Shown piece after piece: positions 7,129 through 49,212 of a stretch of 64,000 bases of DNA. A program made the position numbers and the translations under genes. How positions within the stretch are numbered: the first letter of the stretch is position 1; each line of letters opens with the position of its first letter. Below the pieces are notes generated by a model. It saw only the letters and a program-made list of their open reading frames with translations, did no database searches and was not told the origin of the DNA. The stretch is from Candidatus Poribacteria bacterium (GTDB lineage: Bacteria; Poribacteria; WGA-4E; WGA-3G): contig OZ251518.1 in assembly GCA_965242965.1 (NCBI GenBank), forward strand, positions 4,160,001 to 4,224,000, given 5' to 3'.

Positions 7129-7902
7129 TTATCGCGTCGCTTGTGCCCGAATCTGGCCCCACGTCGTGACGAGTTTGCCACCCGGTTGCACATCCAACGC
7201 CACCGAGATGCCATCGTCCATGAGCTCCTTAATTTCCTGCTCGCTGAGGGCTCTGGCGTAAAGGATAACTTCGTCAATCGTGCCTGTCATCCAGTAACCG
7301 CCGATATCACAACCGCCGATAAAGAAAACGTTATCGTGGTTATCGGGTTTTGTGCCGGGCGAGACTTCGGCATCGACTTCGCCGTTCAGATAGAGTTTGA
7401 AATCAGAACCATCGTAAGTGCCGGCGACGTGATGCCACTCTCCGTCCGTGATAGCGGTTTTCGCATCAAACGATTTCCATCCCGCATTCGTCGTGAAGGA
7501 ATAGTGGACGACACCGGTGTTGATATTGCCGAACAATCCGTAGTTGCGTCCGGTCGGATTGCGATTCTCTTTGGAGGCGATAATCTGCCACTTCCCGGAA
7601 ATTTTCGGGATGTTGACATAGGCGGCGAGGGTGAATGTCTCCAAGTCCAGCGCGTCGTCATCGGTGACTGTCACCATATCGGCACCGCCGAATTCCATGG
7701 CACCGCCAAATTTTCCTTCCACCCACTTCGGTTTTCCCTGGGCGATTTCGCCATCCAAGCCGTTATCCGATGCATCGGTGACTGCGTTGCCTTTGCCTTC
7801 ATCAAGCAGCCAAGCACCAACGAGCCCATCTGTATCCAATGCCATCAGCGATGGCGTTATTGCAAACAGGCTCAGTATGAGAAGGGTTAGCATTTTGTTC
7901 AT
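7129..7902 (-). CDS. Secreted LamG-like jellyroll protein
   Basis: Signal peptide; LVGAWLLDEG, GKFGGAMEF, WHHVAGTYDG, GTIDEV..YARALS; C-terminus VQPGGKLVTTWGQIR. Confidence 0.9.
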   Translation of the reverse strand: MNKMLTLLILSLFAITPSLMALDTDGLVGAWLLDEGKGNAVTDASDNGLDGEIAQGKPKWVEGKFGGAMEFGGADMVTVTDDDALDLETFTLAAYVNIPKISGKWQIIASKENRNPTGRNYGLFGNINTGVVHYSFTTNAGWKSFDAKTAITDGEWHHVAGTYDGSDFKLYLNGEVDAEVSPGTKPDNHDNVFFIGGCDIGGYWMTGTIDEVILYARALSEQEIKELMDDGISVALDVQPGGKLVTTWGQIRAQATR

Positions 7903-7920
7903 GAAAAGTCTCCTGTTAAA

Positions 7921-8172
7921 ACGGGCCTGTTGAGGGACAGGCCCTCAACCTACGCGCGAAACTAACGGGCCTGTTGAGGGACAGGCCCTCAACCTACGCA
8001 CGCGCGCATTTTTAAACTAACGGGCCTGTTGAGGGACAGGCCCTCAGCGTTTCACTACCGTAGCGCGAGGGCCTGTCCCTCGCGAACCCTCAACGTTTTA
8101 ATACCGTAGCGCGAGGGCCTGTCCCTCGCGAAAACGGGCATGTTGATAGGCTGTCCCTCAACCTACGCGCGC
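7921..8172. repeat. REP variant cluster (GGGCCTGTTGAGGGACAGGCCCTCAACCTAC)
   Basis: Three near-identical copies plus GTAGCGCGAGGGCCTGTCCCTCGCG units. Confidence 0.8.
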
Positions 8173-8184
8173 GTCACGCATTTG

Positions 8185-9480
8185 TTAAACTTCGGTGCCG
8201 GCAGGAATGGTTGCATCTTTTGGGACGATGACAATTCCATCGCGGATGTAGAAGTTGTCTCCATCGTAATTATCAGTGCCGTCGCGGTTAACAATTACCG
8301 AATTATCGCCGATCCGTGCATTTTTGTCAATGATCGCGTTCTGAATCAGGCACTTCTCTCCTATTCCGACGTTCGGAACGCCATCCTGCGCGTTTTGTGC
8401 GCGTTGCGCCTCCGATTCGTAGTAGTCCGCGCCCATCAGCACCGATTGATAAACGCGGCTGCCGCTGGAGATAACACTCCGAATCCCGACAATCGTCCGG
8501 TCCAATTCCGAATCGTCAATGATAGAACCCTCGGCAAGGATGGAAGAACGAACGCTACTGCTGTTCACTTTCGTGCTCGGCAGATGGCGGCGGTTGGTAT
8601 AGATGGGTGCCTGTTCATCGTAAAAATTGAACGCCGGTGCGATATCCGTGAGCGCGATATTCGCCAAATAGAAGGAACGGATAGTGCCGATATCCTCCCA
8701 ATAGCCATCAAAAAAGTAGGCGGAAACCCGACGCGTCCCAATGGATTTCGGGATGATGTCTCTGCCAAAATCGACGTTTGAGTCATCTTGGAGGACCTCT
8801 TGCAACACCTCGCGGTTAAAAATATAAATGCCCATGGAGGCGATGTATTCCCTGCCATGTGGTTCAATGCCGCGTGAGGTAAAGACATTGGGGGAAACCC
8901 GCAGCTGCAGCAGTTCTTCTTGCGTCTGCGGTTTCTCCACGAAATCGGTGATGCGGCCATCGGCATCGGTTTGCAGAATACCGAGCCCACTCGTCACCTC
9001 CTCGTCCACAGGAATAACAGAGACGGTGATGTCGGCGTTCGTTTCCGTGTGGACCTGGAGCATTTTACGGTAGTCCATCCGATAGAGATGGTCTCCTGCA
9101 AGAATGAGGACGTATTCATCGGGGAACCGTGGGTTCAAAATATACGGTTGATTGTGCTTGACGGCATCCGCCGTGCCTTGATACCATTCTTCGCCCATCA
9201 ACGTTTGTTGCGCCGCCAGAATCTGCACGAACCCGCGGCGATAGGTATCAAACCGGTATGTCTGCGCGATGTGCCGATTCAACGAAACCGAGTTGAACTG
9301 CGTAAGGACATAGATGCGTTCCAGTCCGGAATGAAAGCAGTTGCTAATCGGGATGTCAACAAGCCGGAATTTCCCGGCGATGGGGACGCTCGGTTTGGCG
9401 CGGTCGCGAGTGAGTGGAAACAGGCGTGTGCCACGGCCACCGCCAAGGATAACTGCAATAACGTTTTCTGTTGTTCGCAT
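8185..9480 (-). CDS. glgC: Glucose-1-phosphate adenylyltransferase
   Basis: ILGGGRGTRLFPLT..RAKP, WYQGTADAV, GDHLYRMDY, ASMGIY, YWEDIGT. Confidence 0.97.
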   Translation of the reverse strand: MRTTENVIAVILGGGRGTRLFPLTRDRAKPSVPIAGKFRLVDIPISNCFHSGLERIYVLTQFNSVSLNRHIAQTYRFDTYRRGFVQILAAQQTLMGEEWYQGTADAVKHNQPYILNPRFPDEYVLILAGDHLYRMDYRKMLQVHTETNADITVSVIPVDEEVTSGLGILQTDADGRITDFVEKPQTQEELLQLRVSPNVFTSRGIEPHGREYIASMGIYIFNREVLQEVLQDDSNVDFGRDIIPKSIGTRRVSAYFFDGYWEDIGTIRSFYLANIALTDIAPAFNFYDEQAPIYTNRRHLPSTKVNSSSVRSSILAEGSIIDDSELDRTIVGIRSVISSGSRVYQSVLMGADYYESEAQRAQNAQDGVPNVGIGEKCLIQNAIIDKNARIGDNSVIVNRDGTDNYDGDNFYIRDGIVIVPKDATIPAGTEV

Positions 9481-9483
9481 AGG

Positions 9484-10089
9484 TTACAGACTCCCTTTCG
9501 TCGATAGCACCCCCGTGATGCGTTCGTCAAGGCGCGTCGCAATGTCCAACGCCTTCGCAACCGCCTTAAAAATCGCCTCGATGATGTGGTGCCGATTCGT
9601 GCCGTAGGGGACGTTGATATGCAACGTTGTCCCGCTATGGTTGACAAATCCGTGAAAAAATTCCTCAGCGAGTTCAATGTCGAAATTGCCGACTTTGCCG
9701 TATTTGAGCGGCGTATCGTAGTGCAGATGGGGGCGGCCGCATACGTCCAAATCCACCTGAGCGAGGGCTTCATACATCGGCACGGTGAAACTGCCGAACC
9801 GCTGCATCCCGGTTTTATCCCCCACCGCTTCGTGAAGTGCCATGCCCAAGCAGATGCCGACATCTTCGGTGGTGTGGTGTGCATCGACGTGTAAATCCCC
9901 GGTAGCTTCAACCTCAAGGTGAAAAAACCCGTGTTTTGCGAAGAGTTCCAACACGTGGTCCAAAAATCCTACGCCGGTGTTGATGTTAGCTGTGCCTGTT
10001 CCGTCAAGCGTGAGGCGGAGTCGGATTTGGGTTTCTGCCGTTTTCCGCGTAATTTCTGCTTGTCGGAGGTGTTTCGTTGTTTGAGCCAT
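9484..10089 (-). CDS. hisB: Imidazoleglycerol-phosphate dehydratase
   Basis: RKTAETQI, TGVGFLDH, DAHHTTED, NRHHIIEAIFKA, STKG. Real start is ATG 10089; the upstream ORF extension is REP-derived. Confidence 0.95.
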   Translation of the reverse strand: MAQTTKHLRQAEITRKTAETQIRLRLTLDGTGTANINTGVGFLDHVLELFAKHGFFHLEVEATGDLHVDAHHTTEDVGICLGMALHEAVGDKTGMQRFGSFTVPMYEALAQVDLDVCGRPHLHYDTPLKYGKVGNFDIELAEEFFHGFVNHSGTTLHINVPYGTNRHHIIEAIFKAVAKALDIATRLDERITGVLSTKGSL

Positions 10090-10143
10090 ATTATACCTTG
10101 AAAACGTTGTTTTGTGCAATAATCTTTCGCGTTCTGTTGCTCC

Positions 10144-10386
10144 CGCGGCATGGCGGGGGACAGGCCCCCGCCCTACGTTATAATACGGGTTTCCGCGTCC
10201 GTAGCGCGAGGGCCTGTCCCTCGCGAGCGTTGTAAAGAACGGTTGCCTTGGGTCCCGGCATGGCGGGGGACAGGCCCCCGCCCTACAGGCCAATAGAGGT
10301 TTCCGCGTCCGTAGCGCGAGGGCCTGTCCCTCGCGAGCGTTCGGTTTATCCCGCGGCATGGCGGGGGACAGGCCCCCGCCCTACAG
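10144..10386. repeat. REP cluster
   Basis: Alternating GGCGGGGGACAGGCCCCCGCCCTAC and GTAGCGCGAGGGCCTGTCCCTCGCG units. Confidence 0.85.
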
Positions 10387-10402
10387 GCCAAGGAGTTATC
10401 CC

Positions 10403-13042: not shown

Positions 13043-13078
13043 ATACGTTTCTCCTCCCGACGCGCATTGAAAGCGCGC

Positions 13079-13303
13079 CTACTGGGAATTATCCGCGGTT
13101 CCCGTTTTGAGCGTCAGGTAGACACCGCGGTTCCGTTTTTCAAAGACTAGGTTTTCCTCACGTGCGAGCCAGCCGATGCCCATGAGCACCAGCCGTTCAC
13201 TTCCATCAATGTCCCGGATGAGTTTGCTCACCGTGGCTTCGCCGTGTTCCTCTAAATAGTGCCAGATTTCGCCAGCGACTTTTCCAATATCGTCTTGCAT
13301 CAT
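13079..13303 (-). CDS. Small winged helix-turn-helix protein (DUF2582-like)
   Basis: IGKVAGEIWHYL ... MGIGWLARE pattern. Confidence 0.85.
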   Translation of the reverse strand: MMQDDIGKVAGEIWHYLEEHGEATVSKLIRDIDGSERLVLMGIGWLAREENLVFEKRNRGVYLTLKTGTADNSQ

Positions 13304-13485
13304 TTTTCCTCCGTGCGGGTTATCGTTTCACAAAGATTTTGTGCACCAATCCATTATATATTATAGACTGATTTCGCGCCGATGTCAAGAGAAAATCAAT
13401 GTTTCTGCACCGTGCAAAAATTCGCTTGCTTTTTCATCGCAAATCTGCTAAAATCCACGTAAATCCAAAGGAGACAGGTGCAAAA

Positions 13486-14223
13486 ATGCGTATCAGAAAT
13501 TTCGTTATCTTCTTCACGGTGTTGGCGTTCGGCATGGCGGTTTCCATGAATGTGTCGGCGGAACTGCTGTTCCACGATGATTTTGAGAAAGATGAGCTTG
13601 GACAAGAGCCCGCGAAATGGGAGCTCGGGCACGATGGCAGCACGAAGGCAGAAGTCGTCGCAGACCCGAGGGATGCCAGCAATAAAGTGCTTTTAACAGC
13701 CGATAAAGGATCGAACGCCTCGCGGCATGATGTCGGCGGCTCCATCTATGTCGTCGGTGATGCCAACTGGGACGATTACGTCGCCGAATGGGACATGATG
13801 TTTCCCGATGACTTTTACATGGGGGTTGTCTTTCGCTTTCAGGATGGCGAGAAGTTCTATCTGAGCGACCGGCGGCAAGGCGGCAGAGACTATCATTTCT
13901 ACAAACGGCAAGGCGGCTGGGCGCAAGTCCAAGCCGGGATGGTGGAAAATGAACCGGAGGTATGGTATCGCGCGCAACTCACGCTAGCCGGCGATGAATT
14001 CACCTTCAAACTGAAAGAACGGAAGGACAAAACGTCGTTTGACAGGCTTGATGCAGCGACTGAAGGTTCGGATGCTACCTTCAAAACCGGCAAGTTCGGC
14101 AATTACGGCCTCGTCTATATTGATAACCTCTTCATTGGGGATTCCGTGGAAGATCTGGTTTTGCCGGTGGATGCACGGGATAAATTGAGCGTCACGTGGG
14201 GTGCTATGAAAGCGCGTTATTAG
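13486..14223 (+). CDS. Secreted concanavalin/DUF1080-like beta-sandwich protein
   Basis: Signal peptide from ATG 13486; LFHDDFE, GDANWDDY, GVVFRFQD; C-terminus VDARDKLSVTWGAMK. Confidence 0.8.
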   Translation: MRIRNFVIFFTVLAFGMAVSMNVSAELLFHDDFEKDELGQEPAKWELGHDGSTKAEVVADPRDASNKVLLTADKGSNASRHDVGGSIYVVGDANWDDYVAEWDMMFPDDFYMGVVFRFQDGEKFYLSDRRQGGRDYHFYKRQGGWAQVQAGMVENEPEVWYRAQLTLAGDEFTFKLKERKDKTSFDRLDAATEGSDATFKTGKFGNYGLVYIDNLFIGDSVEDLVLPVDARDKLSVTWGAMKARY

Positions 14224-14271
14224 AGTCTCTCTTGGCGCGTAAAGCGAGGAGATGTCTCTTGCATTCCTGAC

Positions 14272-14511
14272 ATGGCGGGGGACAGGCCCCCGCCCTACGT
14301 TTCACCGGAGTTCAAGTAGTGCGAGGGGCTGTCCCTCGCATTCCTGGCACGGCGGGGGACAGGCCCCCGCCCTACGGTGCACCGGGATTCAAGACTCTCT
14401 TTGCGCGTAGTGCGAGGGCCTGGCCCTCGCATTTTGACATGGCGGGGGACAGGCCCCCGCCCTACGTTTCAAGGACACGCAGATGGCGGGGGACAGGCCC
14501 CCGCCCTACGG
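14272..14511. repeat. REP cluster
   Basis: Four GGCGGGGGACAGGCCCCCGCCCTAC copies. Confidence 0.85.
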
Positions 14512-14537
14512 GACAATATATGAGGAAAATCAACATC

Positions 14538-16573: not shown

Positions 16574-17668
16574 TTAATTTCTCCCCCACGCATTTGCCAC
16601 GATAACCAAATCCAACACATTCACCACGCCATCGCCGTTGGCATCGGCAGGATGCTTCCCAGTCTGTCCGAAATTTGAGGCAATCAACATCAAATCCAGA
16701 ATGTTCACGCTTCCATCGCCGTTCACATCGCCAGAGAGTGTCTCTTCCTGTGTATCCGTTGGCAGAGCAGCTGTCGTAAGCGCAAGATCAAACGTCAGTT
16801 CCTCAATCACCGGCACGTTCGTTGCGGCGAGCTCCTTCTCATAACTCCATATCTCATTCCCAAGCGGTGTGAGTCGAGCATAGATATCGGCACTGAGGAC
16901 AACGTCTAGGCCATAAAGGAGTTCAGCCTCGTAGACGCTTTGGATACGCGCAGCATCGCCACCGGGGATAGCGATGGGCTGCCCTTCACTCGTGATGGAT
17001 ACCCCGTTCACTACCAACGCTTTTCCGACTAAACTTCTGTGACTGGAGAGGTCTGCGTGAGCAACGATACCGGCATCCAAGGAGTTCTTGATAATCCTCT
17101 TTAGGAGCTCTTTAGCGATTGTCCCAAGCGGCGTAGTCGTGTCTAAAATGGCAGACCCGAGTTCAACAGCACCGAGCTCCACGCTCACAATATTGAGAAG
17201 GTCTGTTTCAAGTCGGACCGGGGTAGTGTCGTCGAGGAGAAATCCGTTGAATGTTTGTGATTCGTTCCATTCTTTCGCCGTGGTGAGACGGGATATCTCC
17301 ATGCTACGCCTGATGTCAATATCGCCATCTTCTTCCCAGAATGCAAGAGGGATAGCGAAGTCCAAATCGAGGGTGCCGCGGGTTGTGACGCTGCCGTTGG
17401 TGCTAAGCGATGCGCTGGTGCTACGCACGGTAATTGTCTCGGAATCCTGGGCGAAATTCATGTCGCCTGTGACAGATGCCGCGATGGTTTCAGTGCCGAA
17501 TTCCATGCTGAGCGCGAGGGCGATGGCACCGCCTATCGTGTAATCCCAAGTCAGGCTATCGCCAAAGGGCTTTAAGGTGGCATCGTAGGTGACAGATTCG
17601 GCGGCACCGAGGCGGACGGTGAAAAAGAAGCATGTGAACATTAAAACGAAAGCAGCGGTAGGTTTCAT
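16574..17668 (-). CDS. Secreted protein with C-terminal dockerin-type domain
   Basis: Signal peptide; GDVNGDGSVNILDL ... ADANGDGVVNVLDLV. Confidence 0.85.
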   Translation of the reverse strand: MKPTAAFVLMFTCFFFTVRLGAAESVTYDATLKPFGDSLTWDYTIGGAIALALSMEFGTETIAASVTGDMNFAQDSETITVRSTSASLSTNGSVTTRGTLDLDFAIPLAFWEEDGDIDIRRSMEISRLTTAKEWNESQTFNGFLLDDTTPVRLETDLLNIVSVELGAVELGSAILDTTTPLGTIAKELLKRIIKNSLDAGIVAHADLSSHRSLVGKALVVNGVSITSEGQPIAIPGGDAARIQSVYEAELLYGLDVVLSADIYARLTPLGNEIWSYEKELAATNVPVIEELTFDLALTTAALPTDTQEETLSGDVNGDGSVNILDLMLIASNFGQTGKHPADANGDGVVNVLDLVIVANAWGRN

Positions 17669-24751: not shown

Positions 24752-26803
24752 ATGAAAAAATCTCATTCCCGACTCCTCTGGACAGGGTGCATCTTACTCA
24801 TCAGCGCAAGTTTGGCGCACAGCCAGCAGTATGTCATCGTTGACAGCGCAGACGGCGACAGACTCACAGGCATCTGGCGCGGTGCAAACGATACCGAATT
24901 TGAGGTTGACTATCACGGCCAGGTTTTGCGCCTCCCGCTTAAAGGACGCACCATCCGTTTTACGTCAAACTTGGAGCATGTAGCGGATAGAACCGCTGTT
25001 AAACACTTCCGCAATGGGCTCGATTTGCTGGAATTAAACTCGCCGGCACTCGCGAAACGGCGATTTGAAGCCGCGCTGGAAGAATTTCCGAAATACGCAG
25101 ACGCGCACTACCAACTCGGTTTACTGCATCAAGAAGCCGGGGAAACCGCAGCGGCGTTGGCACGCTTCCGTTCTGTCACGATGATAGATGCCGCCAGTTT
25201 TGAGCTCGTGCCGCTGTTGCGGCACATCGGCGACACTGCGCTCGCCGCCGAAAATTACACGACGGCCGTTGATGCTTATCAACTCATCTTGAACCATTAT
25301 CCCGAACACGAATCGGTAAGAACGCTCGGCTACCTCACCGGGTTCTTGCACGTGGAGCAATTGCGAGACACGGCGGCGGGACTCGTGCTGCTGGAATGGG
25401 CAATTAAGGAGTTCCCCGACGCGCCTCTCCATGAAAAAGCGGTATTCCAGATAGGCACACTGCAGGCAGAGACTGGGGAGCTAGACAACGCGCACCACAC
25501 CTTATCAGGTTTCTTGCAACGTTACCCAGAAAGTGAATGGAACAACGAGGCGCGCCTCGCCTTGGCTATCGTGAATCTCCGACTGGGGCGAAAACAAGAT
25601 GCGGCGACAGAGGCGAACCTCGTCCGGACGCTAAGCACCGAGCCCGCGCTCATCGAACGCGCAGAAGAAATCCTCGCTGAAAGCGCGTGGAACGTTTACA
25701 CCGAAGCGGAAGGACTACCGCACAACACTATCCAAGCCATCGCCATGAACGGAACGTATCTCTGGATAGGCACGCCGAAGGGCATCATGCTGGTTGAAAC
25801 CTATCTCAATGGCTGGATGCCGATTCCCTCGGTAGCAAACCTGATAAATACCCACTTTGAAACGGTGCCGGATGTCCGAACCATTGCTGTCCATGCAAAC
25901 GAAGTCTGGATTGGCACCCGAAATCAGGGCGCGCTCTACTACAATCAAGAGACGAACGAAACCAACCGGTACGCGCCACCCGATGCACTGCCGAGTGCCT
26001 GGGTGCGCGATATTCAGATAGATGACACCGAAATCTGGTTCGCGACGGACGCAGGCGTAGTGCGTCAACCTCGCGCTACCGGCGAACATCTGGTTTACAA
26101 CACACAGAACAGCTTTATCCCCACGGACGATGTCCACACACTGGCGTTAACCGATACAACCCTCTGGGTGGCTTCACAAGATGGCACAATAGCAACCTTT
26201 GACAGGCAGTTGCAGGAGTGGCAATCTTATCACTCCACTGAAACCGAAGAAGGCACCGCCATCGCCAAATTTGATGTCGCGGCGGAACAACTCCTCTTCA
26301 CGTGGTTCAACGCCAACTATCAGGCAAACGGCTATTTTCAGGCGGAATGGAATGGCGACAACGGGATATCTACGACACTCCTAACCGGTATTGAAGAACC
26401 TGCTGATTTAACGGCGATTTACATTGCCGGCGTTATTGATACATCGCCAATAGCGGTAAGCCCTAGTCCCGAAACACCGAACGGTGCAGTAGAAGAGAAC
26501 ACGGGTATCGAAACCTCGCCAGCGGAGACACCGCCCTCCGAAGGAGAGGAAGGTTTCCTTGAAAGCACCGAAGCCCCGGGCACCCCGCTTGTCCTTTGGA
26601 TAGCTACGAACGACGATGTCTTCGTCTACTATACCCGTTCAGGAGCCGACAGCGGCTGGAAGACAATCCGCACGCCTCGGACGCTCATAGGGGAGTCTAG
26701 GGCGCGGTGCATCGCCGTGGCGAATGATAAAGCATGGCTCGGCACATCCAACGGGTTAGCGACAATCAGCGCGCAGACGTTGAATAAGAGAGAGTTCCAG
26801 TAG
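24752..26803 (+). CDS. Secreted TPR + beta-propeller protein
   Basis: Signal peptide; TPR/BamD-like helices (YADAHYQLG, YPES); propeller repeats (GLPHNTI..LWIGT..G, VWIGT, IWFAT). Confidence 0.85.
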   Translation: MKKSHSRLLWTGCILLISASLAHSQQYVIVDSADGDRLTGIWRGANDTEFEVDYHGQVLRLPLKGRTIRFTSNLEHVADRTAVKHFRNGLDLLELNSPALAKRRFEAALEEFPKYADAHYQLGLLHQEAGETAAALARFRSVTMIDAASFELVPLLRHIGDTALAAENYTTAVDAYQLILNHYPEHESVRTLGYLTGFLHVEQLRDTAAGLVLLEWAIKEFPDAPLHEKAVFQIGTLQAETGELDNAHHTLSGFLQRYPESEWNNEARLALAIVNLRLGRKQDAATEANLVRTLSTEPALIERAEEILAESAWNVYTEAEGLPHNTIQAIAMNGTYLWIGTPKGIMLVETYLNGWMPIPSVANLINTHFETVPDVRTIAVHANEVWIGTRNQGALYYNQETNETNRYAPPDALPSAWVRDIQIDDTEIWFATDAGVVRQPRATGEHLVYNTQNSFIPTDDVHTLALTDTTLWVASQDGTIATFDRQLQEWQSYHSTETEEGTAIAKFDVAAEQLLFTWFNANYQANGYFQAEWNGDNGISTTLLTGIEEPADLTAIYIAGVIDTSPIAVSPSPETPNGAVEENTGIETSPAETPPSEGEEGFLESTEAPGTPLVLWIATNDDVFVYYTRSGADSGWKTIRTPRTLIGESRARCIAVANDKAWLGTSNGLATISAQTLNKREFQ

Positions 26804-32963: not shown

Positions 32964-33803
32964 CTACCGCTTCTTGAGGTTACCCCATGTGGTAGCGAGT
33001 TTGCCCTGTGCTTCAACAGCAACAACCGCGCCACCTGCCAGGTCGCGCACTTCATCTTCGCTTAAGGCGCGGTCCCAGAAATAGACCTCATCGATCATCC
33101 CATCAATCCAGATGTCGTTGCCTTCATCGCCGCCGCGGGCCCTGCCGACTCCGAGTTCAATCGGTTCGTTGGGGAACGAAAGAAGTGGCGGCGTAATTGC
33201 TCTCGGATGCTCTTGCCCACTTTCAGGGACGATAGTGTCCCCACCGGTAGCCGAGGAGGTCACGTAGGCTTTCGCCTCGGTGCCATCGACGACATAGGCG
33301 ACGTGCGCCCATTCTTCAGCCGCGTAAACCCCATCGGTGCGGAACCACCCTTCGGTGCCTTCCCAGCAGCTCCCCCAGGTCATGTCGGTATCGGTGACGG
33401 TGCAAATGCGCACCATGAAATTCGCGCCCCATCCGACTTTTTCTCCCTTGAAAAGCACGCCGCCGTGGTCCCGGCCGCCGCCCTCGCGGATGTAAAGCCA
33501 CAATGAGATGGAGAAAACGCCATCGTCTTGCTCAAGACTCGCGTCAGATGGAATTTCAACGTATTGCCCGGTGTTCTCGCCGGTGGCGGGATTCTCCGGG
33601 TTTTCAAGGTTGAGTGCCATCCCGGACTGCCCAGCGGCGACGCTGGCACCGTTCATCAACTCACCATCGTTACCGCCGATGGAATCGCTAGCGGTGCCAT
33701 CGTCAAAGTTCCATACAGAGACGAGGCCATCTTCCAAACCGGCGTAACTATTGACAGTGAAAACCGTGAGCGTTAAAAACGCAAAGAGACATAATTGCTT
33801 CAC
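32964..33803 (-). CDS. Secreted LamG-like jellyroll protein
   Basis: Signal peptide; LVSVWNFDDG, WAHVAYV, GMIDEVYFWDRALS; C-terminus VEAQGKLATTWGNLK. Confidence 0.9.
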   Translation of the reverse strand: MKQLCLFAFLTLTVFTVNSYAGLEDGLVSVWNFDDGTASDSIGGNDGELMNGASVAAGQSGMALNLENPENPATGENTGQYVEIPSDASLEQDDGVFSISLWLYIREGGGRDHGGVLFKGEKVGWGANFMVRICTVTDTDMTWGSCWEGTEGWFRTDGVYAAEEWAHVAYVVDGTEAKAYVTSSATGGDTIVPESGQEHPRAITPPLLSFPNEPIELGVGRARGGDEGNDIWIDGMIDEVYFWDRALSEDEVRDLAGGAVVAVEAQGKLATTWGNLKKR

Positions 33804-33957: not shown

Positions 33958-34782
33958 TTAGCGACGGTGGTAGGATTTCATCTTCCCCCATGTCGTCGCT
34001 AATTTCCCTTCGGCTTTGACGGCCAGAGCCCTATCCGGTCGTGTGCCGTTCGCCAGGTCCTGCACCTCGTCCTCAGACAACGCCCGATCCCAGATGATGA
34101 TCTCGTCAATCATGCCATCGAGGAAGGTATCGTTCCCAGCGTTGCCGCCAATCTGCCGACCTGCACCGATTTCTAGGGGACGATCCTTGAAAAGGTTGTA
34201 AGGTTCAGGCGCGACTTGTGGATTCGCTTGGCCGCTGGCGGGAATGTTGATTTTGCCGCCATCTTCCTGAACATAAGCGATGGCTTCCTCACCGTCCGCC
34301 GTTTGACAGACATGATACCACTCCTCGGCATCAATAACACCATCAGTCCGCATCCAGTTTTCGGTACCACCATTGGTTGTGCCGAAGGTCATGTCGGTAT
34401 TATTAAGCGTGAGGAGTCGGAAGGTGAAATTAGCCCCCCATCCAACTTTTTCGCCTTTCCAAACGCCGGCGTGGTCTGCACCGTTTCGGACGTAAAGCCA
34501 ATACGATACGGTATGCGGTCCTTCAATGGCGTTTTCAAGCCCGGCGTTGAAAGGCACCTCGGCACGCGTATCTTTGCTTCCATCTACGTCCAACGCCTTG
34601 CCAAACCTGCCTTTATCAACGACCTTGGCGGCTTTGAAGAGTTCGCCGTGGGCATCACCGATGGCATCGGTGACTTTTCCATCGTCAAACGTCCACGCGG
34701 CGATGACTCCATCGTTCAGGTCTGCCTGCACAGAACCAATCGCCAGCGCAACGACGAAAATGACTGAAATAAGAAATTTCAT
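33958..34782 (-). CDS. Secreted LamG-like jellyroll protein (tandem paralog of 32964-33803)
   Basis: Shares KGEKVGWGANF and DGMIDE..WDRALSEDEV with its neighbour; C-terminus VKAEGKLATTWGKMK. Confidence 0.9.
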   Translation of the reverse strand: MKFLISVIFVVALAIGSVQADLNDGVIAAWTFDDGKVTDAIGDAHGELFKAAKVVDKGRFGKALDVDGSKDTRAEVPFNAGLENAIEGPHTVSYWLYVRNGADHAGVWKGEKVGWGANFTFRLLTLNNTDMTFGTTNGGTENWMRTDGVIDAEEWYHVCQTADGEEAIAYVQEDGGKINIPASGQANPQVAPEPYNLFKDRPLEIGAGRQIGGNAGNDTFLDGMIDEIIIWDRALSEDEVQDLANGTRPDRALAVKAEGKLATTWGKMKSYHRR

Positions 34783-41933: not shown

Positions 41934-41934
41934 C

Positions 41935-42178
41935 GAGGGTATTTCATAACTCGCTCAACGTCGCGGGGGACAGGTCCCCGCGATACGATAAAAAACGCCC
42001 CCTTCACCGTAGGGCGAGGGCCTGTCCCTCGCCATGCGTTTTGGTGTCAGACCTCCTCACCCCTGTAGGTCAGGATCACCTGATCCTGACCTGTTTGTGA
42101 TCAGGCGATCACAAACTACAGAGGGGAAACACACATCGTGGCGATGGAGATCGCGGGGGACAGGCCCCCGCGCTACGG
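41935..42178. repeat. REP mosaic beginning with a MITE left TIR
   Basis: GAGGGTATTTCATAA followed by REP modules. Confidence 0.8.
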
Positions 42179-42237
42179 AAAAAAAACGGTTCTTGAGCCA
42201 TCGCGGGGGAGGCAGGCAGAATAAAAGGAGATTTGAA

Positions 42238-44019
42238 ATGGTAACCGCAATACGTCCTAAAGACGATTTTGTCAAAGAACGTGAGAATTCAGGACGCACC
42301 CGACAACTCTATTTTGGCGACAATCTCGGTATCTTACGCCAGATGCCATCGAATTATGTCGCCCTAGGTTGCACCGATCCGCCGTTCAACAGCGGACGCA
42401 ACTATAACATCGTTCTCGGCGCAATGGCGCAAGAAACGGCTTTCAAGGATACTTGGAAGTATGATGACGCGGCAATGGATACCCGCGCGGAAATCGCAGC
42501 GTATGCTAGAGATGATACGCTCGACGCAGACTATCAGAATGCTTATGTCAACGCCGATAACTACCTGAAAGGTTTTGACATGGTTTACGGCGAACCTACG
42601 CGTGGCTCAGACGCTAAACTACGCGCGTATCTTACCTTCATGGCACCCCGTATCGTTGAGATTCGACGGGTGCTGAAGGACGACGGTAGTTTCTACCTAC
42701 ATTGCGATGACGCTGCTAGTCCTTATCTCAGAGGACTCTGTGATGCGGTTTTCGGGCGTAAGCAGTTTCGCAATGAGATTGTTTGGAAGCGTCATAATGC
42801 ACATAGTGATGGCAAACAATATGGACGTATTCATGACATTATTTTGCTTTATACGAAGAGCAGTAAATGGATATGGAATCCTGTCTATACCCCTTATGAA
42901 GATGGGTATCTCGAAAGAGTTTATCGGCGTGAAGACGAAAGAGGTCGTTATACTCTTGGAGATTTAACAGCGTCAGGTATCACTCAAAGTGGTGAGTCTG
43001 GAAAAGCATGGCGCGGCGTGAATCCGAGCGATGTCGGCAATCACTGGCGAGCCTACCGCCGAAAAGCATGGCCCGAAGATGTGATGCCGCCCGATAATTA
43101 CGAATCAATGTCCGTTCACGAAAAACTGGACGCGTTAGATGCCGCTGGATTAGTTCATTGGAGCCGTAACGGGAAACCGAGTTTTAAGAGGTATCTGTCA
43201 ACAGCAAAAGGCGTTGCTGTCCAAGATATAATTTCGGATATCAAAGCATTGAAGAGGCCTAAATATCCCACCGAGAAGCCTCGTGAGTTATACGAGCGGT
43301 TTATCAAGACTTCATCAAACGAAGGCGACATCGTCCTAGATCCGTTTGGCGGTGGCGGGACAACGATTGACGCTGCGGAGACATTAAAGCGCGGTTGGAT
43401 TGGCATCGATTTGACGGTGCTGTCATTAGAGCCTATCCAAAAGCGTATGTCCGAGCGTCATCATCTTAACGCATTCACTGATTATCCCGTCAAGGGTTAT
43501 CCCGTGAATATGGAGGAAGTCCGAGCGATGCTGGCGCGGGGAGAGAACTCGCAGCGATATAAGGACTTTGAGCAGTGGGCGGTGACGCGTCTCGGCTTGA
43601 AACCTACGAGATATGTCGGCGATGGCGGCATTGATGGTATCGGCACGCGTCTGGCATGGAATGCTGATAAACTGAAGGAAACGGAACTGAAATCCGTTGC
43701 CGAAGTCAAATCGGGACAGATTAGCGTTAGTGTCGTGCGTGCTTTCCGAACGTCACTGCGCGATGCTGAAGCCACGATTGGTATCCTGATTGGTATCACT
43801 CCTATTTCTGCGGGTGTCAAGCAAGAGCTGCAGAAAGAAGGCACTTATACGCATAACGGGCAAGAGTATCCCCGCCTGCAATACTGGCAGATTACGGACA
43901 GATACTTCGAGAATCCCGCATCCATCGCTTTGGATTTGAAACTGGCATGGAAACCTGAGCCCATCAATCAATTTAAAGCGCATTTTGCGGATACACAGCA
44001 GGATTTTCTTGACAAATAA
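42238..44019 (+). CDS. Beta-class N6A/N4C DNA methyltransferase fused to an Mrr-like PD-(D/E)xK endonuclease
   Basis: LYFGDNL, TDPPFNS, YPTEKP, VLDPFGGGGT; C-terminal DGGIDG...AEVK. Start ATG 42238 after AAAGGAG. Confidence 0.9.
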   Translation: MVTAIRPKDDFVKERENSGRTRQLYFGDNLGILRQMPSNYVALGCTDPPFNSGRNYNIVLGAMAQETAFKDTWKYDDAAMDTRAEIAAYARDDTLDADYQNAYVNADNYLKGFDMVYGEPTRGSDAKLRAYLTFMAPRIVEIRRVLKDDGSFYLHCDDAASPYLRGLCDAVFGRKQFRNEIVWKRHNAHSDGKQYGRIHDIILLYTKSSKWIWNPVYTPYEDGYLERVYRREDERGRYTLGDLTASGITQSGESGKAWRGVNPSDVGNHWRAYRRKAWPEDVMPPDNYESMSVHEKLDALDAAGLVHWSRNGKPSFKRYLSTAKGVAVQDIISDIKALKRPKYPTEKPRELYERFIKTSSNEGDIVLDPFGGGGTTIDAAETLKRGWIGIDLTVLSLEPIQKRMSERHHLNAFTDYPVKGYPVNMEEVRAMLARGENSQRYKDFEQWAVTRLGLKPTRYVGDGGIDGIGTRLAWNADKLKETELKSVAEVKSGQISVSVVRAFRTSLRDAEATIGILIGITPISAGVKQELQKEGTYTHNGQEYPRLQYWQITDRYFENPASIALDLKLAWKPEPINQFKAHFADTQQDFLDK

Positions 44020-44022
44020 ACC

Positions 44023-44562
44023 GAGGGTGTTTCACATATTAATGCCTTCCCGGTGGGAGAGACCTCCTGGTCTCGATGTCTCTCCTACCGACAGGCATCG
44101 GGCCCAACTCTGTAGTTCGGGAGCGCCTGCTCCCGAACGGGTCAGGAGCAGGTGCTCCTGAACTACAGGAGTGATGCAGTCTGCGGGCCAAACGCATGGC
44201 GAGGGAAACCCGCTCGCATGCGCGTGTGGCATGCGAGGGCCCAAGCCCTACGATGAAGGGCAGGCGTTTTTCATCGTAGCGCGGGGCCCTGTCCCCCGCG
44301 AGCTCCATCGTCAAGAGTCGCGTTTTAGGTCCGTTAGGACCTACATGTCTATAGAAAAACGTGTCGTCCCGTTTTCAAGGGCCTTTAGGTCCTTAATAAA
44401 AACACGCGCGGCCCTGGCAAAACACATTAAGGACCTAAAGGACCTTAGGATTCTTAGCGGGCACGCGTGCTATAGACATTAAGGTCCTACGGACCTAAGA
44501 GAACCAGAGACGTTTTTTTCGTAGCGGGAACGATGGCGAGGGACAGGCCCTCGCCCTACGAT
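44023..44562. repeat. REP mosaic beginning with a MITE left TIR
   Basis: GAGGGTGTTTCACA, REP modules, long palindrome ~44325-44497. Confidence 0.8.
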
Positions 44563-44607
44563 GAAGGGGCGGCGTTTTTTCATTCCACGGGCAGCGTGCT
44601 GTTTCCA

Positions 44608-44967
44608 TTACGCCACGTTCTCCATGCGCGCGGCATCGGTTTCAGGCGTAGGCATCGCCTCGGTTAAGGGTTCAATCGTCAGCCGACAGCCGAGTGCCTT
44701 GAGGAGCACGGCGAACCTGTCTAGCGGCGGTGCCGCGTCGCCGGCAAGCAGCTGTGCAAGCGTCTCCGGTTCCAACTGCGTCTGCTTTGCGAGTTCAGCA
44801 ATCCCACCTTGTGATTGGACAACGGTGTCAACTGCGTTTAGCACAGCGGCAACATTCCCAAAGCGTTCATATTCTTCCATTACTGCGTGGAGAAAGCCGC
44901 TTGCTTCCTCCTTGTCATTAGCAAACCTCTCAATGAGGTATGCGTCCCAGTCTCCCATTTTCCTCAT
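44608..44967 (-). CDS. Addiction module antidote (HTH antitoxin)
   Basis: GGIAELAKQTQL..ETL...L.GDAAP....LLKALG; overlaps the toxin stop codon. Confidence 0.85.
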   Translation of the reverse strand: MRKMGDWDAYLIERFANDKEEASGFLHAVMEEYERFGNVAAVLNAVDTVVQSQGGIAELAKQTQLEPETLAQLLAGDAAPPLDRFAVLLKALGCRLTIEPLTEAMPTPETDAARMENVA

Positions 44968-45302
44968 CGTTGTGACTCCTTATAGTCCCGCCAATAAGTT
45001 TTGGCACGTTGAATGTCCCGATGCTGCGAGGACTTGTCACCGCCGGAGAGCAAAAGGACAATGGTGTTTCCGACTTGCCCGAAATAGATACGATAGCCGG
45101 CCCCGAAGTCCAAGCGCAGTTCAGATACACCACTTCCCACCGATTCACAATCACCGAAATTGCCGGCTTTGACTGAGTTCAGTCGTGCCACAATTCGCTC
45201 TCGCGTTGTCTTGTCTCGGATTCCCTCAAACCATTCGTTGAAAGGAGCTCGGCCGGTTGCAGTCCGGTAGTATTGCAGTTCTCGTGGATGTGCTTCGCGC
45301 AT
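44964..45302 (-). CDS. RelE/ParE-superfamily addiction module killer toxin
   Basis: PFNEWF, GNFGDCESVGSGVSELRLDFGAGYRIYF, LLSGGDKSSQ. Confidence 0.93.
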   Translation of the reverse strand: MREAHPRELQYYRTATGRAPFNEWFEGIRDKTTRERIVARLNSVKAGNFGDCESVGSGVSELRLDFGAGYRIYFGQVGNTIVLLLSGGDKSSQHRDIQRAKTYWRDYKESQR

Positions 45303-45317
45303 GGTTACTCATTCGCC

Positions 45318-46301
45318 TTAAATTTCATAACGGACTAACTTGCGCGCCGCTTCTACAATTTGGGCTGTCCCCGGAATAACAAAGTTCTCCATGACAGGCG
45401 CGAACGGCACCGGCACCGGCGCAGCGGCTACACGCTCAATCGGGGCATCAAGATAGTCAAACGCTTCCCGGACGACAAGGGCGGCAATCTCCGCACCGAA
45501 CCCCGCTCTCCCAACCGCCTCGTGCGCGATGAGGAGCCGATTCGTCTTCTTGACTGAATTGAAAATCGTCTCTTTGTCAAGAGGCATCAACGTCCTCGGA
45601 TCGACGACTTCAGCAGAGATGCCTTCGTCGGCGAGCTCGTCTGCGGCAGTCAATGCCTGGAGCACCATCCGGGAAGTAGCAAGGATAGTAATATCATCCC
45701 CCGCGCGCTTCACCTCGGCGACACCCAACGGAATCGTATACTCCTCTTCCGGGATGTCTCCCTCTTCCGTATAGAGGAGTTTATGCTCAATAAACATAAT
45801 CGGATTGTCGTCACGGATTGCTGTTTTCAACAACCCTTTTGCATCGTAGGGGGTTGCTGGCATCACCACGAGGAGCCCGGGGATGTGCACAAACCATGCC
45901 TCCAAACTCTGTGCATGTTGCGCCGCCGAGGAGCGTCCGGCACCGCCTTGCGTCCGAATCACCAGCGGCACATCAAGCTGTCCACCTACCATATACCGAA
46001 TCTTCGCTACCTGATTAACAATCTGATCCATGCCGACGGCAGTGAAGTCAATATACATCAACTCGGCGACAGGACGCATGCCGGTAACGGCGGCACCGAG
46101 TGCAGTGCCGATAATAGCGGCTTCGGAGATAGGCGTGTTGCGCACGCGCTCCTTGCCAAATTGCTGGAAGAGGCCATCTGTCACCTTATAGGCACCCCCG
46201 TATTCGGCGATGTCCTCTCCCATCAGAAAAACTGCTGCGTCGCGATGCATCTCCTCAACGAGTGCCTCTTTGAGGGCATCGCGATAGGTAATTGTCTTCA
46301 T
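45318..46301 (-). CDS. 2-oxoacid/acetoin dehydrogenase E1 beta subunit
   Basis: MGEDI, RVRNTPISE, RPVAELM, AAQHAQSLE, DAKGLLK, FDYLDAPI. Confidence 0.95.
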   Translation of the reverse strand: MKTITYRDALKEALVEEMHRDAAVFLMGEDIAEYGGAYKVTDGLFQQFGKERVRNTPISEAAIIGTALGAAVTGMRPVAELMYIDFTAVGMDQIVNQVAKIRYMVGGQLDVPLVIRTQGGAGRSSAAQHAQSLEAWFVHIPGLLVVMPATPYDAKGLLKTAIRDDNPIMFIEHKLLYTEEGDIPEEEYTIPLGVAEVKRAGDDITILATSRMVLQALTAADELADEGISAEVVDPRTLMPLDKETIFNSVKKTNRLLIAHEAVGRAGFGAEIAALVVREAFDYLDAPIERVAAAPVPVPFAPVMENFVIPGTAQIVEAARKLVRYEI

Positions 46302-46391
46302 TTTTTAGTCTCTGCTTCCTTGTGGGCCGCGTCAGTTCAACGTGGCGGCCCCTAGCGATATTTCCATCCCAGTCTTTTCCAATTTTCCTAT

Positions 46392-46841
46392 GAGGGTGTT
46401 TCATAAATCGCTCAATGTCGCGGTGACAGGTCCCGCGCTACGGTAAAAAAAACGCCTTCCCCTCACGTAGTGCGAGGGACAGGCCCTCGCCATGCTGCGA
46501 TCGCGGGTTGGCAGAAGCAGCCGAAGTCCAGGTCTCCATCTATAGCCTGTCCCTCGCCATGCTGCGATCGCGGGGGACAGGCCCCCGCGCTACGGTAAAA
46601 AACGCCGTCCCTTCATCGTAGGGCGAGGGCCCTCGCAGGGTTCCACACGCGCATCCGAGCGGGTTTCCCTCGCCATGCGCTTTGCTGGCAGACCGCATCA
46701 CCTCTGTAGGTCAAGATCGCCTGATCTTGACCCGTTCGGGAGCGGGCGCTCCCGAACTACAGAGGTGGGCCCGATGCCTGCCGGGATTCGCTCGCCCTCC
46801 AAGGCGTGATAAATACCGAAACGGAGTTATGAAACACCCCC
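46392..46841. mobile_element. MITE-like element
   Basis: TIR GAGGGTGTTTCATAA / TTATGAAACACCCCC; flanks AATTTTCCTAT / AATTTTCCGAT. Confidence 0.85.
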
Positions 46842-46956
46842 AATTTTCCGATAGGTTGCCAGATTGAAGTCCCGCACCGAGTGCTTTTCAGGCGTTTCTT
46901 TCATATCGTTAGAGTGTATCACAAAAGGTCTTTTCTTTCAAAAAATGCGCAACTGA

Positions 46957-48306
46957 TTACGAAATCAACCCCTCCATTTGCATCCACTCGATCGTCTGCG
47001 CGAAGGCTTGCACCGTTTTTGCGATGTCCTCTTCAGTATGCGCGGCGGTAGTCATCCCACCGTTACTGGCGAGATCGATGCCGTTGAGCAACATCCCGCA
47101 TCGGAGCGGTGTGAGCAATCGCTCATCGTTGCCGCCTTTCAGTTTCCGGTAATCCCACTCGTAGGCGTTAAATTCCACCGCACGGATATCCTTCTCACCG
47201 TGCCCGATGAGCAGCTTGATGCCAGAGAATTCGCCGTAAACCGCCCAATCTAAGTCGTGCGCGTCAATAAGTTGGTTCAATTCCTTACGAAGCTGTTTGG
47301 CAATGCGGTTCGCCTGCTGATGCGGCTTTCCTGTCTTGACGATGTTGAGCATCGCGATGCCCGCGGATGCAGAGAGCGGATTCGCGTTAAAGGTGCCAGG
47401 GTGCGGCATCTTCAAGCCGCGTTTCTCCGACTGCCTTGAGATGAGTTCCAGAATCTCCGCTTTTCCGACAAGCGCGCCGCCGGGCAGTCCTCCCGCTAAA
47501 ATTTTCGCGAGCGTTGTCATATCCGGTGTGACATCGTAATAGGTTTGCGCTCCGCCCGGTGCAACGCGAAACCCCGTGATAACCTCATCAAAAATGAGTA
47601 GGACACCGTGCGCTTGCGTGAGCTCCCGCAGTTGCCTCAAAAATACCCCATCGGTTGGCACGATACCGAAAGACGCACCGGTAGGTTCAAGGATAACGCA
47701 GGCGATGTCAGCATCCGATTTCAATAGGTTTTCCACTGCACCGATGTCGTTCGGTGGACAGAGGAGGGTGGTATCCCGCACCTCTTGCGGAATGCCCGGC
47801 ACCGGCACATCAAACGGCGGGTATGCGCCCAAGATGAGGCTGTCGTGCCAGCCGTGAAAATGCCCGGTGAACTTTAACACCTTGTTCTTGCCTGTGTAGG
47901 TGCGCGCGAGACGCATCGCCATCAGCGTCGCCTCAGTCCCAGAACTGACAAACCGAATCCGTTCCGCCGATGGGACAAGTTCGTTTACGAGGCGTGCCCA
48001 TTCCAATTCAAGTGGGTGGCACGCGCCGTAGTGAGTGCCGCGATGCATCTGCGCCGTTACGGCTTCGACAACCGCAGGCGGATTGTGTCCGAGGAGCAAC
48101 GCGCCGTGGCCCGCCCAGTAATCGATAAATTCTTGTCCCTCAATCCCCCACTTCTTCGCGCCATCCGCGTGCGAAATGTAGACAGGGAAGGGTGCCATAT
48201 ACCGGCCGTCGTGCGTTACGCCATCGGGAAATAGTTGCGTCGCCGCGCGCGCGAGTGCTCTATCTTTTGCGAAGGTTTTTTGATACCGCTCCAAAATCGT
48301 TTTCAT
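46957..48306 (-). CDS. Class III PLP aminotransferase (GSA-aminomutase-like)
   Basis: SSGTEAT, FHGWHD, IFDEVITGFR, LAKILAGGLP, GTFNANP. Start ATG 48306. Confidence 0.92.
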   Translation of the reverse strand: MKTILERYQKTFAKDRALARAATQLFPDGVTHDGRYMAPFPVYISHADGAKKWGIEGQEFIDYWAGHGALLLGHNPPAVVEAVTAQMHRGTHYGACHPLELEWARLVNELVPSAERIRFVSSGTEATLMAMRLARTYTGKNKVLKFTGHFHGWHDSLILGAYPPFDVPVPGIPQEVRDTTLLCPPNDIGAVENLLKSDADIACVILEPTGASFGIVPTDGVFLRQLRELTQAHGVLLIFDEVITGFRVAPGGAQTYYDVTPDMTTLAKILAGGLPGGALVGKAEILELISRQSEKRGLKMPHPGTFNANPLSASAGIAMLNIVKTGKPHQQANRIAKQLRKELNQLIDAHDLDWAVYGEFSGIKLLIGHGEKDIRAVEFNAYEWDYRKLKGGNDERLLTPLRCGMLLNGIDLASNGGMTTAAHTEEDIAKTVQAFAQTIEWMQMEGLIS

Positions 48307-48420
48307 GGTTTTTCCCCGAAGTAGCGAACAGTTTGAATTAGGATATTCCCACAAAAAGACAGAAATGTCAATTGTCAATCAAAACGTGAGAGGACGCGAC
48401 GGATGCCGCGTCCCTCAAAA

Positions 48421-49212
48421 CTAACGCGCTGTTTTCAGCCGTCCCCAGGTTGTCGTTAGTTTACCGCGCGCCTCCACGGCGAGGAAGCCATCAACGCCAT
48501 CGTTCATGATAGTGTTTACCTCTTCCTCCGTTAACCCGCGCTTCCAAATGTTCAAATCATCCATGAGGCCGGTGAACGGCCGGTTATTGTCAATGTTATA
48601 GCCGACGCGTGCCCCTGCATCCCAGTCGGGCGCGATGGGTGTGCCAACCCGTGCCTTCTCTTCACCAACGTTCTTCCCATTGATGTAAAGCACAGCCATG
48701 CCTTCGGCACGGCTGAACGTGCCGGCGTAATGCACCCATTCGTTCGCCTCATTCTTGCCAGCGCGGATGTCAAAGATAGTCGTGCCACCGGGACTCCGAT
48801 TGAGCCAGCGATAATTGCCATCGCCGCGCGCCTCCGGATGCACCAGCCACGTGTTGTCCCCGGCGCGAGCGTTGAAGAGTGCCATGTCGGAGACTGCCTC
48901 AACGTTAATCCACGCGACGACGCTCATTCCTTCCGTCGGAATATCGTCCGGATTAATGTTCGGGCCGTCCAAATCTAGGAAGCTGCCAGCGACGAAATGC
49001 GCGGCTTTCCCGAACTTCCCATCGTCCGACTGCGTAACCTTCCCGTTAATCACGCCATCATACCCGCGCCCAGATTTTTCAACGACAGCATCGCCGCTGA
49101 AGTCCTCGTAGTCAAAGTATAAAACCAGGTCTGGTTCCCGCACATCGGCGGATACACCGCTGCCTTGGTATGCCAAAAGTAGGCACGTCAAAAACATCAT
49201 GTAGGTTTTCAT
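48421..49212 (-). CDS. Secreted LamG-like jellyroll protein
   Basis: Signal peptide; LVLYFDYE, GKFGKA, WVHYAGTF, GLMDDLNIW; C-terminus VEARGKLTTTWGRLK. Confidence 0.9.
   Translation of the reverse strand: MKTYMMFLTCLLLAYQGSGVSADVREPDLVLYFDYEDFSGDAVVEKSGRGYDGVINGKVTQSDDGKFGKAAHFVAGSFLDLDGPNINPDDIPTEGMSVVAWINVEAVSDMALFNARAGDNTWLVHPEARGDGNYRWLNRSPGGTTIFDIRAGKNEANEWVHYAGTFSRAEGMAVLYINGKNVGEEKARVGTPIAPDWDAGARVGYNIDNNRPFTGLMDDLNIWKRGLTEEEVNTIMNDGVDGFLAVEARGKLTTTWGRLKTAR

Follow-up and report, generated by a model that had tools for sequence, protein, structure and literature searches.

A short conserved C-terminal tail on putatively secreted, lectin-like proteins of Poribacteria: a candidate sorting or anchoring tag

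C-terminal sorting of bacterial proteins is known from a short list of systems, among them LPXTG, PEP-CTERM and the C-terminal domain (CTD) of the type IX secretion system (T9SS). The type A CTD of the T9SS is a folded beta-sandwich of 70-100 residues that lies at the extreme C-terminus of proteins with an N-terminal Sec-type signal, and within a single genome it is shared by dozens of cargo proteins with unrelated folds. PEP-CTERM sequences, which combine a P-E-P motif, a transmembrane (TM) helix and a basic end, are short tags at the C-termini of numerous secreted proteins in a genome. Here we describe a tail of about 20 residues at the C-termini of five putatively secreted proteins that are encoded in one stretch of Candidatus Poribacteria DNA. 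The stretch, called the window below, comprises 64,000 nucleotides (G000:C1:4160001-4224000) of genome G000, an assembly of 5.70 Mb in two contigs with 54% G+C and a completeness of 94.66%. Our preferred interpretation, to which we assign a rough probability of 0.45, is that the tail is a modular C-terminal sorting or anchoring tag that is read in trans. In function it would parallel the T9SS CTD and PEP-CTERM, but without a folded domain or a TM helix. The comparison suggests that the tail belongs to the same kind of C-terminal sorting or anchoring tags, as a new, short and domain-less form for which no Pfam or NCBIfam profile exists.

Poribacteria are dominant uncultured symbionts of sponges, and little is understood about the way in which they expose proteins to the host matrix. 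A phylum-wide tag on about 100 lectin-like, adhesin-like and carbohydrate-binding module (CBM)-like proteins per genome would delimit a candidate surface-exposed or secreted proteome, whose members carry public names that say just "LamG domain-containing" or "hypothetical". If a dedicated reader exists, the tail would add a new class beside LPXTG, PEP-CTERM and the T9SS CTD; its profile (alignment A1) can be used now for the annotation of cargo, and later in a search for the machinery.

The tail and its passenger domains

A six-frame scan of the window with the regular expression KL..TWG returned five matches, all located 5-8 residues ahead of a stop codon (Table 1). This bears out the claim of the first-pass annotation, which was made from the DNA letters alone, that five signal-peptide-like proteins share a C-terminal motif; genome-wide there are far more copies. 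In all five window proteins the tail follows the consensus L-[AP]-V-[ED]-[PA]-x-[GD]-K-L-[ATS]-T-T-W-G-x-[LIVM]-K, after which come 1-6 mostly basic residues and the stop. Signal peptides were read from the sequence, with a 10-residue hydrophobicity window as a heuristic. By this reading the N-termini of all five proteins appear to be of the n-h-c type, with small residues at the end (LMA, VSA, SYA, VQA and VSA). The internal ATGs at 13486 and 49212, which the first-pass annotation had used, sit right before the hydrophobic signal-like segment and are the likelier starts for P0002 and P0005.

Across the source genome, 58 open reading frames (ORFs) of 201-412 amino acids match the strict expression [KR][LIVM]..[TVS]WG..[KR] at most 12 residues before the stop. 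The stop follows 1-6 residues past the motif in every one of them, and a valine occupies position -5 in all 58 although this position lies outside the expression. An N-terminal hydrophobic segment is present in 57, with best windows of 2.36 or more; the 58th copy, T17, scores 1.44, and the start of its ORF was set too far upstream. An 18-column profile made from the strict copies adds about 50 variant tails (TTWA, TRWG, KAATTWG and others), nearly all of them 2-15 residues from the stop and two of them in larger ORFs of 1209 and 1281 amino acids. A profile-based count per genome, as proposed in the first-pass annotation, thus raises the 58 strict copies to 94 tail-bearing genes among the 5289 of a crude gene call, or about 2%.

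The codons used for the tail reveal the level at which it is conserved. At the invariant V and G all synonymous codons occur, the codons for L, K and T also vary, and the 40 nucleotides 3' of the stops of tail genes show no conservation. Because synonymous codons vary freely and the DNA past the stop is unconserved, the conservation of the tail is at the protein level and not at the DNA level, as expected under selection on the protein. A degenerate DNA pattern that encodes K-L-[ATS]-T-T-W-G-x-x-K has 33 matches in the source genome; the reversed pattern, which served as control, has none there or in any other genome searched. In an alignment of 59 proteins that combine a LamG domain with the tail (24 from the source genome and 35 from other metagenome-assembled genomes (MAGs), with identities of 19-37%), the sole invariant columns are V, K, W and G of the tail. 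The tail is the most conserved part of the proteins that carry it, and such uniformity fits a constraint imposed in trans.

The passengers of the tail are diverse, but this becomes apparent only when the whole genome is considered. The first-pass annotation had seen two domain types in the window; however, both are jelly rolls of the concanavalin A (ConA)-like type, namely Laminin_G_3 in four proteins and a weak GH59_C/DUF1080-like, ConA-like lectin match in P0002. Among the 58 strict copies, Laminin_G_3 is the best Pfam family in 27, and six other families score above the curated cut-offs: PD40, 3keto-disac_hyd, DUF4960, CBM9_1, F5_F8_type_C_2 and RhaB_D2. Weaker matches include malectin and GH43_C2, and 17 of the 53 strict copies outside the window have no Pfam family at E values up to 0.01. 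Two large tail proteins combine leucine-rich repeats (LRR) with fn3, LTD and Ig-like domains. The passenger folds (LamG, DUF1080, CBM9, the PD40 propeller, F5/8-C, DUF4960 and the LRR/fn3 adhesins) are unrelated to each other. To judge from these matches, the majority of passengers are likely stand-alone modules of the lectin or carbohydrate-binding type, and a few resemble LRR/fn3 adhesins.

The tail lies outside the domains that precede it. Pfam matches stop short of it, Laminin_G_3 matches run to position 151 of the 151 positions of the model ahead of it, and the linker before it often contains many P, G, D and E residues. The last 20-25 residues of the five window proteins match no model in Pfam or NCBIfam. 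An AlphaFold2 (AF2) model of P0001, built on the alignment of 59 LamG and tail proteins, has a mean predicted local distance difference test (pLDDT) value of 88. The blocks of the LamG core (residues 21-110, 121-180 and 191-230) average 90-98 and the tail blocks 72, 50 and 64, with values below 50 at residues 239-244. Residues 243-255 are drawn as a low-confidence helix (pLDDT 50-64) that does not join the LamG sheet. The corresponding model of T33, based on an alignment of 17 rows, is unusable (mean pLDDT 46).

The first-pass annotation had named two findings that would speak against a sorting tag: that the tail forms an integral strand of the LamG fold, or that an existing Pfam or TIGRFAM entry already explains it. 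Neither was found, because the tail lies outside all Pfam and NCBIfam models and is not a LamG strand in the AF2 model. We rejected the integral-strand interpretation for ConA-like folds in general, as the tail is located outside the domain border, is unpacked in the model and is present on folds that are not ConA-like. One could also assume that the tail has no function, and that it represents a chance motif, a DNA repeat or just the last strand of a ConA-like domain; the window, in which four copies are attached to LamG and the fifth to another ConA-like domain, would agree with this. We consider this explanation extremely unlikely in view of the 33 to 0 result of the reversed-pattern control, the free synonymous variation at invariant residues next to unconserved DNA past the stop, the presence of the tail on propellers, CBM9, F5/8-C and LRR/fn3 proteins, and its unpacked position beyond the Pfam borders.

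Searches with the tail itself returned no named relatives. A profile search of the PDB gave nothing significant; the best matches were an internal segment of a GH3 protein (E 0.07) and the N-terminus of an adhesin (E 0.16). The former, residues 653-665 of the GH3 beta-glucosidase 7pjj_A (EPGGRLPTTWGSL), resembles the core of the tail, probably through coincidence with a conserved GH3 strand. In the ESM Atlas the best score for the tail part was 0.85, without a named cluster. The 120 matches listed in a search with full-length P0001 are close relatives, and all of those with a named source are from Poribacteria and annotated as in the public names given above.

Relation to known C-terminal modules

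The source genome also encodes 41 proteins with a T9SS-type CTD (TIGR04183), in ORFs of 224-7081 amino acids that end in ATRKMVIRK; this domain is absent from the five window proteins in an NCBIfam scan at E values up to 1. The best evidence for the role of the tail comes from proteins in which tail and CTD replace each other. T43 shares 84% identity with the N-terminal 263 residues of a protein of 925 amino acids, and the identity ends exactly at the residues GFLTA. Past this point T43 continues with V-D-A-Q-D-K-L-A-T-S-W-G-K-I-K-R-L-R and stops, and in its paralogue WD40-like repeats and a TIGR04183-type CTD follow. The same alternative is seen in two further passenger families. One LamG paralogue family has 49 genes: all 48 small members end in the tail (45 scored and 3 degenerate), and the single large member ends in a CTD. 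The swap on homologous passengers suggests that the tail behaves as an address module, that it falls into one functional class with the T9SS CTD and that the two are interchangeable, in agreement with the role of an address tag that the first-pass annotation had proposed.

Like the T9SS type A CTD, the tail is found at the extreme C-terminus of dozens of proteins with unrelated folds per genome, and these proteins carry N-terminal signals that the heuristic places with the Sec type. The two modules differ in their construction: in contrast to the folded CTD, the tail has about 20 residues, is modelled by AF2 with low confidence and does not match the CTD model. Like PEP-CTERM, the tail is a short tag that recurs on many secreted proteins in a genome, and its Pro-containing acidic start (V-E-P) and basic end resemble the P-E-P motif and basic end of that system. 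However, no hydrophobic TM helix separates motif and basic end in the tail. Membership in the PEP-CTERM/exosortase system was rejected, as TIGR02595 has no match in the source genome at E values up to 1 (75 candidates scored), exosortase (PF09721) has no match in this 94.66% complete genome, and the tail lacks a hydrophobic stretch. An LPXTG motif or a TM helix was not seen in the tail sequences, and a sortase gene was not searched for.

Two other kinds of modules are comparable in part. In the dockerin-cohesin system, too, a uniform C-terminal module is attached to diverse carbohydrate-related passengers and binds one shared partner, which in the case of the tail is a proposed one. However, dockerins are covered by a Pfam model and consist of some 60 residues in a duplicated Ca-binding fold, and the tail matches no model. 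No dockerin was found among the 58 tail proteins. The same scan does find one in the window: the 364-amino-acid ORF at 16577-17668 on the minus strand has a C-terminal dockerin type I domain (PF00404, E 1.6e-11), which is the third kind of C-terminal docking module in the source genome besides the tail and the T9SS-type CTD. Some 20 residues that form no fold by themselves can also suffice to target or anchor periplasmic proteins, as is known from the N22 segment of the curli protein CsgA and from the C-terminal anchors of PBP5/6, and the tail is similar to these in length and in the lack of a fold. In contrast to the tail, N22 is N-terminal and specific for CsgG, and the PBP anchors are poorly conserved, whereas the tail has an invariant V, W and G. 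We found no description of the tail in the literature searched, which was a limited collection.

Combining these observations, we envision that the passengers cross the inner membrane via Sec, as their signal-peptide-like N-termini suggest. Behind the folded passenger domain the tail hangs on a flexible linker, as the sequences and the AF2 model show. One shared component of the envelope, which may be a receptor, an outer-membrane translocon or a processing enzyme, would read the tail in trans and direct the passengers to the cell surface or hold them there. Export or anchoring is a candidate role for the tail.

Distribution and the search for a reader

The tail is nearly restricted to one lineage. 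The DNA pattern was scanned over one genome per species, and the figures concern the loci listed: 73 of 80 are labelled Poribacteria. In those from Poribacteria MAGs, 82 of 86 distinct matches are followed by a stop 1-12 residues on; of the other four, two lack the upstream V-x-P and are chance matches, and two extend beyond their locus. The pattern is present in 41 of 41 relatives, and in 148 of 151 genomes sampled across Poribacteria. In each of the three genomes without the pattern, the profile gives 41-70 matches at E values up to 1 (best E 3e-6 to 5e-9), counted irrespective of their position in the protein, so that the tail is found in 151 of 151 genomes, 148 by pattern and 3 by profile. 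A search of a 5.8-billion protein set with the tail alone returned 16 orthologues of the query and is uninformative on distribution. These data support part of the first-pass annotation, namely that the signal-peptide proteins share a modular C-terminal element that lacks a TM helix and is restricted to a lineage, and the distribution fits that of a system.

One listed locus is from a MAG labelled Pseudomonadota (G154), whose phylum is represented by 131 genomes in the collection. In this second phylum the tail is present in four genomes (G154, G205, G206 and G207; profile E up to 1e-4) and absent from 127. Its carriers are signal-peptide proteins of 320-400 amino acids in which it lies 3-5 residues from the stop and which end, for example, in LPVEAKGKLATTWGAIKIMQ. 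These passengers match no Pfam family and have no BLAST match in the source genome; most belong to one paralogous family, and a second family accounts for others. Since the tail is attached to other protein families in these four genomes, the module has crossed a phylum border. In G206, eight ORFs of 367-473 amino acids have the same tail score of 24.6 bits (contig C1, e.g., 1601705, 102198, 1860028, 1596973, 1037212, 1951545, 1870235 and 1914708), and the two that were inspected share the identical end MPVAAKGKQTTTWGELKKEE. This set looks like a recent expansion of paralogues in a tail-bearing family of the second phylum. Near the tail genes of G207 (loci L206, L207 and L211) several ankyrin-repeat proteins are encoded, one of them fused to an acyltransferase_3 domain.

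An alternative explanation for the distribution is that the tail is directed at the host, i.e., that it is recognized by a sponge factor and was shared among unrelated sponge symbionts by transfer. The presence in a second lineage, the passengers' resemblance to adhesins or lectins and the richness of G207 in ankyrin-repeat proteins agree with this, as ankyrin repeats are linked to symbiosis. Nevertheless, we regard it as very unlikely, because all 151 sampled Poribacteria carry the tail, deep branches with small genomes included, and because a bacterial reader is indicated by the strict C-terminal position and by the way in which the tail alternates with a sorting domain of bacteria.

What such a reader might be was approached from several directions, and the outcome weighs against the interpretation as a tag that is read in trans. 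No machinery was found. No family other than the tail proteins themselves is clearly enriched within three genes of the tail genes of the source genome (best 4 of 13, uncorrected P = 0.017), and the tail genes of the window are located among housekeeping genes. The presence of the tail in every sampled Poribacteria genome leaves no negative contrast within the phylum, which makes phylogenetic profiling there impossible.

The candidates that remain in the source genome are components similar to those of the T9SS, all of them below the curated cut-offs: an ORF of 2232 amino acids similar to SprA, five PorV-like barrels and three PorU-like ORFs (1696-2186 amino acids). In the PorU-like ORF at L189 (G000:C1:3237-3244 kb), the one that was scanned against Pfam, a Peptidase_C25 domain was identified, and a PorV-like gene comes after this ORF. 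For single-cell genomes, Kamke et al. (2014; PMC3909097) report TIGR04183-like domains and no structural genes of the T9SS.

These components could suggest that the tail is a minimal signal of the T9SS type, read by a PorV-like barrel and processed by a PorU-like C25 peptidase, and the alternation of tail and CTD on homologous passengers would fit. We nevertheless consider this very improbable, as the tail resembles neither the CTD nor its last strand (ATRKMVIRK), and the T9SS-like matches are all sub-threshold. The second phylum provides a further argument. PorV (PF19572) is found in none of its 131 genomes, and a profile of the PorV-like P0143 (alignment A5) has no match in the four tail-positive genomes and eight in one tail-negative genome. 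Peptidase_C25 was likewise found in none of the four, though the control included in this search did not detect the family anywhere. TIGR04183 occurs in two of the four genomes, and not in G207, which has 13 tails. The tail, unlike the T9SS CTD, is thus also present in genomes where PorV-like and C25 genes did not turn up, and the sole candidate machinery of the source genome is not shared by them. The reader of the tail is therefore probably not PorV/PorU-type T9SS machinery. Models of P0142 and P0143 in complex with residues 22-257 of P0001 gave ipSAE values of 0.00 and 0.02 (mark 0.32), which speak neither for nor against binding.

The first-pass annotation had pointed to window genes as possible machinery, and here its proposals found no support. 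The GspC-like gene at 4177-5019 gives marginal matches (E 0.001-0.007) in one of the four tail-positive and three of the 127 tail-negative genomes of the second phylum, uncorrelated with the tail. The putative LolA-like and barrel ORFs at 1036-3632 match no family. Because of these marginal or absent matches and the results from the second phylum, neither the T9SS-like parts nor the GspC, LolA and barrel candidates are supported as the reader.

The failure to find machinery would be explained if the tail needed none. K-L-A-T-T-W-G-x-L-K with its basic residues could form a cationic amphipathic helix that binds anionic membrane or lipopolysaccharide, and the tail would then be a self-sufficient envelope anchor; the C-terminal amphipathic anchors of PBP5/6 and the membrane-targeting sequence of MinD are known examples. 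This is the main and a serious rival to a tag read in trans, although on balance we consider it unlikely. AF2 models residues 243-255 of P0001 as helical, though with low confidence. With the conserved Lys as the start of a helix, L1, W5 and L8 would lie on one face, flanked by K0 and K9. The 58 tails have a mean hydrophobic moment of 0.46 compared with 0.30 for shuffled sequences, but 18% of the shuffles reach the observed value. The net charge is +3.1, and the mean D factor is 1.46, with 39 of 58 tails above 1.34, the threshold used in HeliQuest. A tag that works in another phylum, where no PorV-like or C25-like genes were found and no shared machinery is identifiable, also fits such an anchor. 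Nevertheless, in generic binding to lipids an F, L or Y could take the place of the W, and neither an invariant V-x-P five residues upstream nor a G/A directly after the W would be needed; moreover, three hydrophobic residues make a weak anchor.

Another possibility that dispenses with a separate receptor is that the tails associate with each other, providing lectins with multivalency or building a mixed surface layer. The foldon hairpin trimer is a precedent for self-association of a tail. Most passengers are single carbohydrate-binding-type modules, for which avidity matters; a tag that pairs with all others would stay uniform across paralogues; and both the missing machinery and the spread to another phylum could be accommodated. 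However, a tag for homo-oligomers could drift in each family, yet the consensus is the same throughout the phylum, and we consider this explanation improbable.

Returning to the tag that is read in trans, a more far-reaching version would be that the tail marks the cargo of an undescribed sorting or surface-display system of Gram-negative bacteria. Its signal would be linear, C-terminal and about 20 residues long, with no TM helix or folded domain, its cargo would make up about 2% of the proteome of Poribacteria and consist chiefly of interchangeable surface lectins, its dedicated machinery would be neither T9SS nor exosortase nor sortase, and it would have moved between phyla. We regard this extended version as doubtful.

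Features of the window

Table 1. Tail proteins of the window, their tail cores (20 residues, -10 to +9 in the register of alignment A1) and T9SS-like parts elsewhere in the source genome. Positions refer to the window unless a contig is given.
Feature	Position	Strand	Description
P0001, 257 aa	7129..7902	-	signal-like N-terminus, Laminin_G_3 match at residues 71-225, tail LDVQPGGKLVTTWGQIRAQATR before stop
P0001 tail core	7147..7206	-	20 residues, alignment A1
P0002	13399..14223, likely start 13486	+	signal-like N-terminus, weak ConA-like/GH59_C lectin match, tail LPVDARDKLSVTWGAMKARY before stop
P0002 tail core	14152..14211	+	alignment A1
P0003, 279 aa	32964..33803	-	Laminin_G_3 match, tail VAVEAQGKLATTWGNLKKR before stop
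P0003 tail core	32973..33032	-	alignment A1
P0004, 274 aa	33958..34782	-	Laminin_G_3 match, tail LAVKAEGKLATTWGKMKSYHRR before stop
P0004 tail core	33976..34035	-	alignment A1
P0005	48421..49257, likely start 49212	-	Laminin_G_3 match, tail LAVEARGKLTTTWGRLKTAR before stop
P0005 tail core	48433..48492	-	alignment A1
Other T9SS-like parts	G000:C1:2334-2339 kb, 92-96 kb, 3451-3458 kb, 5273 kb		sub-cut-off matches

Three further regions of the window encode proteins of other kinds. On the plus strand at 24752-26800 lies the gene for a tetratricopeptide repeat protein of 683 amino acids with BamD/YbgF-like matches, which also gives a weak propeller match to the T9SS PorZ model NF052228 (31 bits compared with a cut-off of 260). 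A protein of 661 amino acids (42034-44016, plus strand) fuses an N6/N4 DNA methylase domain to a weakly matching Mrr-type restriction endonuclease domain. Type III CRISPR-associated genes occupy 60699-63999 on the plus strand; they include a protein of 595 amino acids with matches to TIGR02221 (TM1812 family) and to CARF-type domains, and next to it an open-ended ORF with a weak Cas10/Cmr2 match.

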